A DNA stretch of 63,997 nucleotides, counting the filler, from Licmophora abbreviata (taxonomy: Eukaryota), in assembly GCA_900291995.1 (NCBI GenBank). It is 11 parts of 11 records of this genome, joined end to end, with 100 filler letters (N's around TTAATTAATTAA, not from the genome) between each part and the next. Parts side by side here need not be neighbours in the genome. Positions count along the whole stretch, not along the records: positions 52,685 to 62,773 come from OLMU01004242.1; 10 more parts are not named here. The stretch is one strand, 5' to 3'. Under the pieces are notes generated by a model. It saw nothing but the letters and a program-made list of their open reading frames with translations. It searched no databases and was not told where the DNA came from. Of this stretch, positions 52,983-54,899 are shown piece after piece (the stretch's first letter is position 1; each line of letters begins with the position of its first letter). The position numbers and the translations under genes were made by a program.

Positions 52983-54899
52983 TCAGTCAAGTCCAAGTGC
53001 CTCGTCTTTGGAAGTCTGCCATACTTGAGCAACAGAATGAAACTCGCCATTCTCTCCAAACGCATCGATGCCAGTTAGAGACTGTCTAAAGTCTCGATTG
53101 TAGACTGATCCGACCTTCACGCTGTCGTGAGTACTGGCCGTCAGTATGCAGGGAACACCTGATTGCTCCAAGTCTCTTGCCAACAATGCGTAGTCTGCTT
53201 TCCACAACGGGTATTCCAAGGGGAAACCAAGCTTGGATAGCATGTCGTCTCGCCAGCCGCGAATATGCTCGAGATGCAAATCGCCAAAGACGAGTGATTT
53301 TATTCGGCATTCTCTGCCTATCACCGCCAATCCCTGTCGAATTCGGTCAATGTATGGTTCTCTGGAGCCACGATACACCGGGACTCCCAGTAGGGTAATG
53401 TCCAGATGTCGCGCTTGTCGAAGCAAGGTATCCATGTGAATCTCTTGATGAGCAATGATGCGAGTAGCACAGTCAAAAGTGGTGAGCAGCACAAGCCCAA
53501 AGCCTTCCTCAGACGAAACACACTCCCTGACCAAAGCTCGAAGAGCCAGGAAGGAGTCTTTGCCGCCGCTAAAGAACAAAATTTTGGCCTTGGGGTATTC
53601 CCGAATCGAGAATTGCTTCCCCTCATGTAGAATCGCCGGTTGTTTGATGCGGTTCACCTTGTCTTGGACATTCTCGTGGTTATAGGGACAATGACGACAC
53701 CCAGATCCGCAGCACTTCCCTCGTTTCTTGTGGGCAATTTCGGTAAAGACGCTGTATCCTGTTCCTGGGTCGTTGTACTTCAGTTCACCGGCCATGCAAG
53801 CCTTTCGATGCAAATCGACCCAGTCAGAGGAATCGCCGATCGTATCTTCCATGTCTTGGACCGGATCTGTGCCAAAGCTAATCTGTTGCCAGCTGGCGGT
53901 TGGCAAAGCGGATACATCTTCCACAGCCTGGACGACACTAGGCTGATCATTGTAAGCACACCGAGCGAGAATAGTCACACCATGGATCAGGTCGGGTCCT
54001 GGTCGAGCAAAGTAGCGGTGACCATCGCATGCGAACACTGAATCCTGTCGTGCGGCTCGCAACGGAGCTATACGTTGCTGTTGACTGAGAGCGTCCCGTA
54101 AATTCCGGCTAAGATCGAATCCACAGCAAGCGACAACTAAGCAGTCGGCGTCCGCATTGGCGACATCTTGCCAGGTAATCTGCTGAGATTTCGTTGAACT
54201 CTTGTGTCGCGCAGCCTCCAACCCGGCCAAGTCCATCATCTGAGGTATCCAGTGGCCGCTGTCGAACGGTGGATCCAACCATTCAAGGAGGAGAGCGGAT
54301 GGTTTAGACTTGCTCTTGACTCGGTTAGATTCAACAGCGATTTTAAGGTTCTCAAGTGTATTTAGGAATGATTCCCTAAGTGACGCGCCACGCTCGTGGA
54401 TCCCACACGCATCGGCAACAGCAACAAAGCTATCGGAGATCTCTTCCAGTGTTGTAGGACTGAGCGAGATAACTGTCGCACCTACCGTGGAAGTTGATTT
54501 GTTCAAAGCTCGTCGTATGTCGGATGTAGAGGGGGCACAAACAGCACATAAGTCTTGCGTAAAGATTAGATTTGGTTGGGCTTCTTCCCATTCGGAAGTC
54601 AGGATGGGATATAGAGAGGGCACTTTCTCAGAGGAAAGCTTGTCTCCACCTTTCTTCCTCTCGTGACTTGACACGGTATTGTGAATATCGATTTGAGAAG
54701 TGACACCCAACCCGTCCCGCGTCAGGATTCGTACGTAAGGGTTGCTGGACAAGACCTCGTCAATGTTACACTCGTGAGTGACCCCGACGACATTCGATGC
54801 CAATCCAAGGGCCAAACAGATGTCTGTTGCCGAAGGAAGCAAGCAAGCAATACGAAGTTGCTCTGGCCCGGGTGCACCGGGAGCTTTCACTTCTGCCAT
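52983..54899 (-). CDS. Fusion: BtuF-like/type III periplasmic-binding domain + DUF5522 + Dph6-like PP-loop ATP pyrophosphatase
   Basis: [107 protein letters not shown]; single 638-aa ORF. Confidence 0.85.

Follow-up and report, generated by a model that had tools for sequence, protein, structure and literature searches.

What would a diatom do with a single protein that joins a relative of the bacterial B12-binding protein BtuF to a cysteine-rich domain and an ATP-using PP-loop domain? The question is raised by an open reading frame (ORF) of 638 amino acids (aa) on the minus strand of a 63,997-nucleotide stretch of Licmophora abbreviata DNA (assembly GCA_900291995.1), the whole of which we refer to as the window. 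We consider it highly probable that the protein has a B12 or corrinoid function of some kind. A narrower proposal, that it is a cytosolic corrinoid-handling enzyme acting after uptake, in which a PP-loop domain of the DUF71-B12 type is fused through DUF5522 to a Cys-bearing BtuF-like domain, we regard as evenly balanced between right and wrong. ATP-dependent amidation as its specific reaction is a tentative prediction. The features of the gene are as follows, with residues of the protein in brackets.

52983..54899, minus strand: three-domain ORF, 638 aa plus stop, ATG start, single exon (P0001)
53880..54857, minus strand: N-domain, a signal-less class III (BtuF/heme-type) binding-protein fold (residues 15-340); Pfam PF01497 Peripla_BP_2 at residues 140-292, 41.3 bits (cut-off 27.5)
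53814..53879, minus strand: linker, predicted to be flexible (residues 341-362)
53670..53813, minus strand: DUF5522 (residues 363-410); Pfam PF17653 at residues 363-410, 81.3 bits (cut-off 25), E 5.3e-23, profile positions 1-48 of 48
53685-53714, minus strand: invariant CCGxGCRHCP cluster in DUF5522 (residues 396-405)
52986..53594, minus strand: PP-loop ATP pyrophosphatase domain, DUF71-B12 type (residues 436-638); Pfam PF01902 PP-loop ("diphthamide synthase") at residues 440-623, 35.3 bits (cut-off 23.2)
53553..53570, minus strand: SGGKDS PP-loop motif (residues 444-449), kept in 39-42 of 42 rows
53037..53057, minus strand: GENGEFH, the ENGE(F/Y)H signature (residues 615-621)

One gene, three domains

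A preliminary description of the locus had reported one intronless ORF with a series of quoted motifs, three domains and no signal peptide, and each of these statements stands. The translation matches the window DNA exactly, all the quoted motifs are present, and all three domains exceed their Pfam gathering scores in the 638-aa protein. The N-domain carries LLPSAT (20-25), HEC (42-44), LCAVCA (117-122), EWLDPP (206-211), GHWIP (215-219), CCGFD (258-262) and RPGP (299-302); the DUF5522 motif quoted earlier was confirmed at residues 396-406 (window 53682-53714), as was an additional PP-loop-domain motif at residues 538-547. More than 100 homologues are colinear over ~98% of the ORF, which is therefore a complete single-exon gene. 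An in-frame stop lies five codons 5' of the ATG, and the bacterial homologues start at the equivalent of residue ~15; because of these two facts there should be no room for a signal or transit peptide, barring an unseen upstream exon, an argument made from the start of the ORF and not from a signal-peptide predictor. An AlphaFold2 model built on a 52-row alignment has a mean predicted local distance difference test score (pLDDT) of 92.3, falling to block means of 57 and 60 over linker residues 341-360 and to below 50 at 345-350. Its predicted template modelling score is 0.62, so that the arrangement of the domains relative to one another is uncertain.

The N-domain is nearest, by profile and by fold, to the type III binders of B12 and heme (4m7o, V. 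cholerae BtuF, ShuT, PhuT, BhuT and E. coli BtuF). Profile matches in the PDB include 4m7o at 1.5e-19, V. cholerae BtuF (5ysc) at 1.2e-13 and ShuT at 3e-12, and Foldseek returns target-normalised template modelling scores of 0.72-0.81 against heme and B12 binding proteins. With BtuF (PDB 1N2Z, 1N4A, 5YSC) it shares the class III two-lobe fold with its backbone helix (Foldseek E 2e-11 to 3e-9) and a B12 context. The earlier label of a BtuF-like binding protein is thus sound as to fold, but the domain is no plain copy of BtuF: it is only ~15-17% identical, has 14 residues before the domain and no signal peptide, bears four invariant Cys in the cleft-forming loops, and pairs with DUF6580, DUF5522 and the PP-loop enzyme, whereas BtuF has BtuCD as its partner. 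No BtuC- or BtuD-type gene was seen among the annotated bacterial operons. The window N-domain has no match to the NCBIfam BtuF equivalog NF002894 (cut-off 234 bits), and of nine bacterial BtuF-like proteins five match that model, at 22-67 bits, all under the cut-off; NCBI annotates the bacterial subfamily as "cobalamin-binding protein" or "ABC transporter substrate-binding protein". The algal B12 protein CBA1 also has a BtuF-like fold, but, as described in the parts of PMC10828217 covered, it has a signal peptide, is targeted to the endoplasmic reticulum, shows little sequence similarity to BtuF and carries no enzyme domain.

Conservation within these two Cys-bearing domains is strict. C44 (in HEC), C118 and C121 (in LCxVCA) and C259 (in CGF) are invariant in all 35 N-domain rows, as are W207, W217 and Y97. 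In the secondary structure of the AlphaFold2 model, these Cys, Trp and Tyr residues fall in loops after beta-strands of both lobes, which would place them in the loops lining the ligand cleft. In DUF5522, C396, C397, C401, H403 and C404 are present in 41/41 rows, H364, H403 and H408 are kept in 40-41 of 41, and C397, C401 and C404 have Cx3Cx2C spacing.

The PP-loop domain belongs to a family that de Crecy-Lagard et al. 2012 (PMC3541065, cited throughout for the parts covered) divided into Dph6 and "DUF71-B12", the latter comprising bacterial and second archaeal copies. There, DUF71-B12 genes lie beside B12 transporter genes in 75/102 cases and beside cbiB in 18/102, and the group is marked by ENGE(F/Y)H in place of the EGGE/DxE188 of Dph6. 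The diatom GENGEFH conforms to this mark, as the preliminary description had it in calling the domain the bacterial form of PF01902; E616, G618, E619 and H621 are found in 42/42 aligned rows. The NCBIfam Dph6 model TIGR03679 gives the diatom protein 26 bits against a cut-off of 197.3. No Pfam match to the RidA/YjgF domains typical of eukaryotic Dph6 was obtained, and the protein stops 15 residues past the PF01902 match (623 of 638). In a 77-row tree of the joined DUF5522 and PP-loop region, 15 eukaryote and six unlabelled rows form one clade (98 by the Shimodaira-Hasegawa-like approximate likelihood ratio test, SH-aLRT), nested within bacterial fusions of the same two domains (SH-aLRT 95). Canonical Dph6 sequences are not part of this tree, and the separation from Dph6 is that of motif and NCBIfam score. 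On sequence grounds we assign the diatom domain to DUF71-B12 and not to Dph6, because of the ENGEFH motif, the sub-threshold Dph6-model score and the position of its clade within the bacterial fusions; the eukaryotic region has a single bacterial origin.

Likeness to Dph6 (yeast YLR143W; archaeal PF0828, PDB 3RJZ/3RK1) extends to the fold and ATP site (PDB 3rjz matches the domain at 6.8e-14) and, as predicted for the diatom domain, to the probable chemistry of carboxylate adenylation followed by amidation. Unlike Dph6, the diatom catalytic motif has H for E188, RidA domains are lacking, and the EF-2-binding residues are not kept in the B12 subgroup (PMC3541065); eEF2 can almost certainly be discounted as its substrate. 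DUF71-B12 proteins such as P. furiosus PF0295 share both SGGKDS and ENGE(F/Y)H with the diatom domain and have bacterial relatives in B12 transport and salvage contexts, but the diatom member, unlike the published ones, is eukaryotic and is fused to DUF5522 and a BtuF-like domain. All eukaryotic DUF71 sequences sampled in PMC3541065 fall in the group of predicted Dph6 proteins, and the parts of that paper covered name no eukaryotic DUF71-B12 member; its main text makes no mention of diatoms, Phaeodactylum, Thalassiosira, stramenopiles or cysteine (DUF5522 was not among the terms searched for there). The function that it gives to DUF71-B12 is a prediction only, for a family never assayed. The suggestion of a B12 link is therefore in part not new: the link of the bacterial PP-loop family was published in 2012 (PMC3541065), while the eukaryotic three-domain form, the link of DUF5522 and the four invariant Cys of a BtuF-like domain without signal peptide were not found in the literature searched.

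Bacterial counterparts and cobalamin riboswitches

From this point on, N denotes the BtuF-like module, D denotes DUF5522 and C the PP-loop module. A search for shorter proteins returned 794 matches, the best of which are D-C proteins of ~270-300 aa, 44-50% identical to the C-terminal half of the diatom protein. Their sources are bacteria, among them Erythrobacter, Verrucomicrobiota and Myxococcota, together with Chromera and Rhodella. Of roughly 560 bacterial loci 80 were kept, and 79 bacterial loci were fetched with the D-C alignment. When these were searched by tblastn with the diatom N-domain, a gene 29-33% identical to it (E 1e-23 to 1e-42) was found beside the D or C genes in 12/79 loci, with two further weak cases. 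The modules are arranged as follows.

N gene, then D-C gene: L008, L012, L015, L035
C gene, DUF6580, N-D fusion: L051, L078, L079
C gene, with a D-N fusion on the opposite strand: L058, L068
C, D and N each as a gene of its own: L071
D, then N: L072, L074
N, D, C, then a spermine-synthase-like gene: L040

At least five module arrangements thus occur over Pseudomonadota, Nitrospinota, Planctomycetota, Actinomycetota and Bdellovibrionota, and varying order and fusion across five phyla is as expected for parts of one system. The bacterial N proteins begin directly at MR(I/V)VSLLPSATE, so that the loss of export predates the eukaryotic fusion. The preliminary description had pictured a periplasmic binder made intracellular along with the diatom fusion; this does not hold, as the bacterial relatives are already without signal peptides.

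In the gammaproteobacterial locus L040 the spermine-synthase-like gene (3389-4147) has a weak NCBIfam match to CpaM, a corrinoid-protein-associated methyltransferase, of 21.6 bits against a cut-off of 180. A 980-aa relative found by protein search (P0117) combines spermidine-synthase domains (PF17284, PF01564) with Peripla_BP_2 and DUF5522, and a spermidine/spermine-synthase-type module may be a fourth recurring partner. On a Longimicrobiales chromosome, 18 tRNA genes are packed into 1.7 kb (L014:410-2108) some 6 kb upstream of a D-C gene.

Fifty-five of the 79 fetched loci were scanned with Rfam RF00174 at its gathering threshold (24 were not). A cobalamin riboswitch stands directly upstream on the same strand in nine of them: L015 (93 bits, with a second copy before a divergent TonB receptor), L051, L058, L068, L078 and L079, and the Bacteroidota loci L030, L031 and L033 (98-101 bits). 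By class of locus the counts are these.

N with D and/or C: 6/14
D-C gene alone: 0/24
seven C-only loci and L046: 3/8
D only: 0/9

The earlier suggestion that homologues in bacteria are found close to genes of B12 uptake is borne out by these riboswitches and by the BtuB-like receptors and DUF6580 genes in the same operons. DUF6580 is present in the operons of L012, L015, L051, L078 and L079 and next door in L030 and L033; the best NCBIfam match of the operon TonB receptors is the B12 receptor model, and L068 also holds CbiQ/ABC genes. Three extra BtuF-like loci were considered, two of which have a riboswitch upstream; these two operons consist of riboswitch, TonB receptor, DUF6580 (or a 180-aa ORF without Pfam match) and BtuF-like gene. 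In two genomes with a lone D-C gene, it is in this riboswitch/TonB operon, away from D-C, that the BtuF-like gene is located.

DUF6580 itself, aligned from L078 (7622-8212) and five other loci, has an invariant Cys (C152 in L078 numbering) and also keeps Phe, Pro and Arg residues. The 180-aa ORF of L083 (7819-8358), which has no Pfam match, aligns to it weakly (19% identity). No sequence match of DUF6580 was found in the PDB, and its ESM Atlas matches are all to DUF6580 clusters, which bear the labels "putative transport protein" or "biotin transporter family". The literature searched held no publication on DUF5522 or DUF6580, nor any joining the cobalamin riboswitch with diphthamide; in the portions of that literature covered, C1orf53, the human protein whose only domain is DUF5522, figures in expression or association lists only.

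Several of these neighbourhoods have a character of their own. In the Sphingobacteriales loci L030 (5733-10629) and L033 (231-5107), a riboswitch is followed by genes for a BtuB-like receptor, the DUF71-B12 PP-loop protein, a SIR2/CobB-type deacylase and a CN_hydrolase, with DUF6580 just downstream on the opposite strand and neither a BtuF-like gene nor DUF5522; L031 has the ORF layout of L030. An Acidobacteriota bin has a Nit6803-type nitrilase, again a CN_hydrolase, in convergent orientation beside its D-C gene (L001:8848-9789, minus strand), a second lineage in which this family lies beside DUF71-B12. In two Actinomycetota bins (L058:4747-7574, L068:5442-8220) a riboswitch precedes a 655-660-aa squalene-cyclase-type alpha/alpha-toroid protein and the PP-loop gene; a second riboswitch stands before an ORF without assignment, followed in L068 by CbiQ and ABC ATPase genes, and the toroid protein may be a B12 binder. 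In Algoriphagus ratkowskyi (L036:7941-12898) a stand-alone PP-loop gene, without a riboswitch at gathering threshold, is two genes away from a methylmalonyl-CoA mutase with a B12-binding domain.

Co-occurrence was measured over 301 genomes of one order. Ten have the PP-loop module, 20 the BtuF-like subfamily and five both, where 0.66 would be found by chance (one-sided Fisher p = 1.6e-4, uncorrected for relatedness). Three of the five have them side by side, without riboswitch or DUF5522. In the same sample no BtuF-like gene occurs in the seven genomes with DUF5522 only. The association is real but partial. Three Sphingomonadales loci illustrate the adjacent form (L085:5943-7668, L086:4676-7997, L087:5450-11638), in the order Peptidase_S9, BtuF-like and PP-loop, with spoT beyond and neither riboswitch nor DUF5522; an FAD oxidase comes ahead of Peptidase_S9 in L085 and L086 only, rpoZ is present beyond in L085 only, and in L087 a single 996-aa ORF holds both Peptidase_S9 and the BtuF-like match. 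The genomic association with B12 genes thus holds for the bacterial relatives, and for the eukaryotic gene the fusion to a BtuF-like domain stands in its place.

Eukaryotic setting and spread

The piece of contig that holds the fusion gene (~52685-62773) also encodes an SPB4-like DEAD-box helicase, a proteasome Rpt subunit, NIP7 and, as a fourth neighbour, an ORF with an RMKL-like (UPF0020) methyltransferase domain. Because the first three are eukaryotic nuclear housekeeping genes, the fusion gene is nuclear DNA and not bacterial contamination. The window consists of separate contigs joined by ten spacers, each N44 + TTAATTAATTAA + N44 (a six-frame stop linker), so that adjacency across a spacer does not imply adjacency in the genome. 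An ankyrin ORF at 51607.. extends into one of them. The spacers are located at:

9150-9249
20199-20298
23748-23847
27493-27592
31778-31877
36149-36248
39355-39454
50524-50623
52585-52684
62774-62873

A word-index protein search gave 421 matches at E <= 0.001. Among the best 120 of the 421, most cover ~98% of the query at 43-57% identity; those that carry a name are from the diatoms Cylindrotheca, Nitzschia, Seminavis, Pseudo-nitzschia, Cyclotella and Skeletonema, and "Skav" is the label of one entry. Among relatives, all three domains are found together on complete MMETSP and Trinity transcripts (P0043, P0061, P0095, P0297), so that in these relatives the fusion is a single mRNA, in accord with the earlier supposition of one product and not of separate transcripts. 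An exhaustive search of 50%-identity representatives returned 6500 matches at E <= 0.001, 431 of them at E <= 1e-30. Twenty more distant representatives were looked up by name, and eight of the clusters carry an organism or transcriptome label: Achlya hypogyna (an oomycete, 617 aa), Chytriomyces species (chytrids, 668-671 aa), Rhynchopus humris (a diplonemid, 637 aa), Mucochytrium quahogii (a labyrinthulomycete), Pelagophyceae sp. CCMP2097 (504 aa), Spirogloea muscicola (856 aa) and one MMETSP transcript. The matches in an oomycete, chytrids, a diplonemid and a labyrinthulomycete mean that the fusion, first described from a diatom and found in diatoms, is no peculiarity of theirs. A 337-aa "D-C" protein of Rhodella in MMETSP (P0126) has an N-terminal extension that, by eye, resembles the last helix of the diatom N-domain (alignment A1, columns 1-60); it may be a truncated three-domain transcript, in which case a red-alga data set would contain the fusion, or else a contaminant.

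The match to B12 users is drawn from few taxa. Chytriomyces, which has the fusion, is a genus of the Chytridiales. For that order, 6 of 8 B12-related proteins are reported in the parts of PMC8085122 covered, and the B12 use of carriers rests on that source and a few named taxa. The three-domain eukaryotic fusion was not found in the literature searched, which included the combination of diatom, cobalamin and diphthine; the main text of a preprint on horizontal gene transfer in diatoms makes no mention of periplasmic, BtuF or diphth- terms, although its supplements might list the gene. What is new is the eukaryotic three-domain form, and what was known is the B12 link of bacterial DUF71-B12, published in 2012 as a prediction.

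Candidate reactions and their meaning

If the protein does act on corrinoids, repair of de-amidated cobalamin, already put forward in the preliminary description, is the simplest reading of its parts, with a redox, ligand-exchange or sulfur-transfer role ranked second. Judging from fold and context, an imported complete cobamide would be held in the inter-lobe cleft of the BtuF-like domain. If it works as Dph6, NAD synthetase and other amidating enzymes of the PP-loop type do, the PP-loop domain would use ATP to adenylate a corrinoid carboxylate, whereupon an amine, most simply ammonia, would displace AMP and restore the amide, so that cobalamin carboxylic acids would be repaired or salvaged. 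More speculatively, DUF5522 and the four N-domain Cys might be sites for a metal or an iron-sulfur cluster that serves in structure, in redox chemistry or as a ligand to cobalt. In its widest form, the repair reading would have many B12-using eukaryotes (diatoms, pelagophytes, oomycetes, labyrinthulids, chytrids and diplonemids) carry a bacterial-derived enzyme that re-amidates damaged B12, with DUF5522 as a metal or iron-sulfur module of B12 trafficking; this we consider conceivable but doubtful.

A source of ammonia may be visible in the Sphingobacteriales riboswitch operon, where a CN_hydrolase gene follows the PP-loop gene and its product is a possible donor. The CN_hydrolase family supplies ammonia in glutamine-dependent NAD synthetase. 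In that enzyme a PP-loop domain adenylates a carboxylate and takes ammonia from its CN_hydrolase partner, as the gene order of L030 and L033 would predict here; it differs in belonging to another PP-loop subfamily, and here the partnership amounts to no more than neighbouring genes of an operon in a single lineage. The sole characterised activity of the DUF71 family is diphthine amidation (PMC3541065).

A number of observations speak against a corrinoid-handling or amidating role. The riboswitch is found in a minority of loci only; it is absent from all 24 loci with the D-C gene alone, the diatom's closest bacterial relatives, whose neighbours are heterogeneous and include no recurrent B12 gene, and likewise from the three Sphingomonadales N-C loci and the nine stand-alone DUF5522 loci. 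Of the ten genomes with the PP-loop module, five show no BtuF-like subfamily member at E <= 1e-30; in 15 others the BtuF-like gene occurs without that module, and an N match is absent in 2/5 D-C genomes. Most loci come from metagenome bins, with genes called by a crude ORF picker (in part with a filter on third-codon-position GC). The fold of the N-domain does not tell ligands apart, its best structural matches being an "iron-binding protein", heme binders and BtuF, and the four cleft Cys could hold a metal ion or an iron-sulfur cluster in place of a corrinoid. Finally, Cys-rich modules beside PP-loop domains are typical of thiolation enzymes and not of amidation. For the D-C clade in particular, the B12 link is drawn because of the riboswitch of L015, the adjacency of N in L008, L012 and L035, and the fusion itself.

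The alternative that best survives, though we think it unlikely, is a redox or ligand-processing chaperone for imported B12, with a role like that of CblC, BtuM or a reductive activator. The Cys sites would hold an iron-sulfur cluster or ligate cobalt, so as to strip the upper ligand or reduce the cobalt, and the PP-loop domain would provide an ATP step or insert sulfur in the manner of Fe-S-dependent PP-loop thiolases. Both the four invariant N-domain Cys and the CC-x3-C-x2-C with its His in DUF5522 would suit such a role, and the likely importer of the same operons, DUF6580, keeps an invariant Cys as well; some B12-using fungi, moreover, are without CblC according to the parts of PMC8085122 covered. 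Set against this, the protein contains no flavin or reductase domain, the Cys could be structural zinc ligands, and a PP-loop enzyme adenylates a carbonyl or carboxylate, which no known B12 processing step needs. We also know of no thio-corrinoid.

Less probable, in our view, is a remodelling enzyme like CbiZ that cleaves or replaces the nucleotide loop of pseudocobalamin or cobinamide, either with the PP-loop reaction reversed as an amidohydrolase or by re-ligating aminopropanol as CbiB does; such an enzyme would be the missing step of algal pseudo-B12 remodelling. A CbiZ-like role in pseudo-B12 salvage was cautiously proposed for DUF71-B12 in PMC3541065, in view of which CbiZ is a proposed functional counterpart in B12 salvage, as CbiR might be; a strict anti-correlation with CbiZ in CbiB-bearing bacteria is reported there, as are the 18/102 genes beside cbiB. 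In the parts of Helliwell 2016 covered (PMC4850488), cbiZ and cbiB are absent from all algal genomes analysed, although some algae remodel pseudocobalamin. The CN_hydrolase, possibly an amidase, and the SIR2/CobB-type gene beside the Sphingobacteriales PP-loop gene would also fit. However, the CbiZ and CbiR amidohydrolases have unrelated folds and hydrolyse without ATP, whereas ATP-dependent PP-loop enzymes normally make amides and do not hydrolyse them.

The genomes of the carriers bear on this too. CbiB and CobS were found in none of five (two Erythrobacter-type, a Novosphingopyxis, an Isosphaeraceae and a Pedobacter), compared with 7 and 9, respectively, of 14 reference genomes; GATase_3 (PF07685), taken as a marker of corrin amidation genes, is uninformative, as it has matches in all 14 controls and only weak partial ones in the carriers. 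B12-binding domains in MetH- and mutase-sized frames are present in 5/5 carriers. The products of CbiZ and CbiR need CbiB and CobS, and a cell gains from cleavage or re-ligation only when it is able to restore the nucleotide loop; such a reaction is therefore disfavoured in these carriers, where cobyric acid or cobinamide could not be rebuilt. The published model, as far as the parts of PMC3541065 covered go, was built on CbiB-holding genomes, unlike the five checked here. The fusion is present, besides, in an oomycete, in chytrids and in Cyclotella and Skeletonema, thalassiosiroid relatives of Thalassiosira, of which T. pseudonana shows no pseudocobalamin remodelling and has no CobT or CobS (PMC4850488, parts covered). 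Action on complete cobamides is favoured because the carriers lack CbiB and CobS, the algae lack cbiZ and cbiB, and the fusion is found in thalassiosiroids, an oomycete and chytrids.

Slightly less probable again is that the ligand is no corrinoid but, for instance, heme, an iron chelate or free Co, Fe or Zn, with the riboswitch reflecting cobalt or tetrapyrrole economy. Among the top matches of the N-domain are indeed 4m7o ("iron-binding protein") and four heme binders (PhuT, ShuT, BhuT and RhuT), the bacterial N proteins have weak NCBIfam matches to a TroA-like "helical backbone metal receptor", and a site of four Cys suits a metal ion. But the riboswitches are of the cobalamin class and occur together with BtuB-type receptors, the NCBI naming of the bacterial family is cobalamin-binding, and eukaryotes that do not make B12 have no obvious need of cobalt delivery. 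A true diphthine-ammonia ligase (Dph6) acting on eEF2, as the public labels of relatives ("diphthine--ammonia ligase" or "diphthamide synthase") and the activity after which PF01902 is named would suggest, can be set aside, since ENGEFH stands where Dph6 has EGGE/DxE, the Dph6-model score is far below its cut-off, RidA domains are lacking, and the eukaryotic clade lies inside fusions from bacteria, which have no diphthamide (PMC3541065), so that the earlier denial of Dph6 identity is upheld.

Returning to a cytosolic enzyme of corrinoid processing or repair, its significance lies in the setting. Much of the marine phytoplankton is limited in its growth by B12, yet the list of known eukaryotic B12 proteins is short: CBA1, chaperones of the CblC/CblD type, adenosyltransferase, and MetH and methylmalonyl-CoA mutase as B12-dependent enzymes. 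A cytosolic enzyme that is conserved, and linked with B12 through its domain fusion and through the riboswitch operons of bacteria, makes a concrete candidate for a processing or repair step. DUF5522, the only domain of human C1orf53, gains a first functional context, one related to B12; a Cys-bearing cytoplasmic BtuF-like family is placed in the same context, and the DUF71-B12 family is extended into eukaryotes. The carriers without CbiB or CobS indicate that the published idea of CbiZ replacement cannot be the whole story. If the repair reading is true, the substrates would be cobalamin carboxylic acids, which act as antivitamins, and the enzyme would represent a new step in eukaryotic B12 metabolism and change estimates of bioavailable marine "B12".

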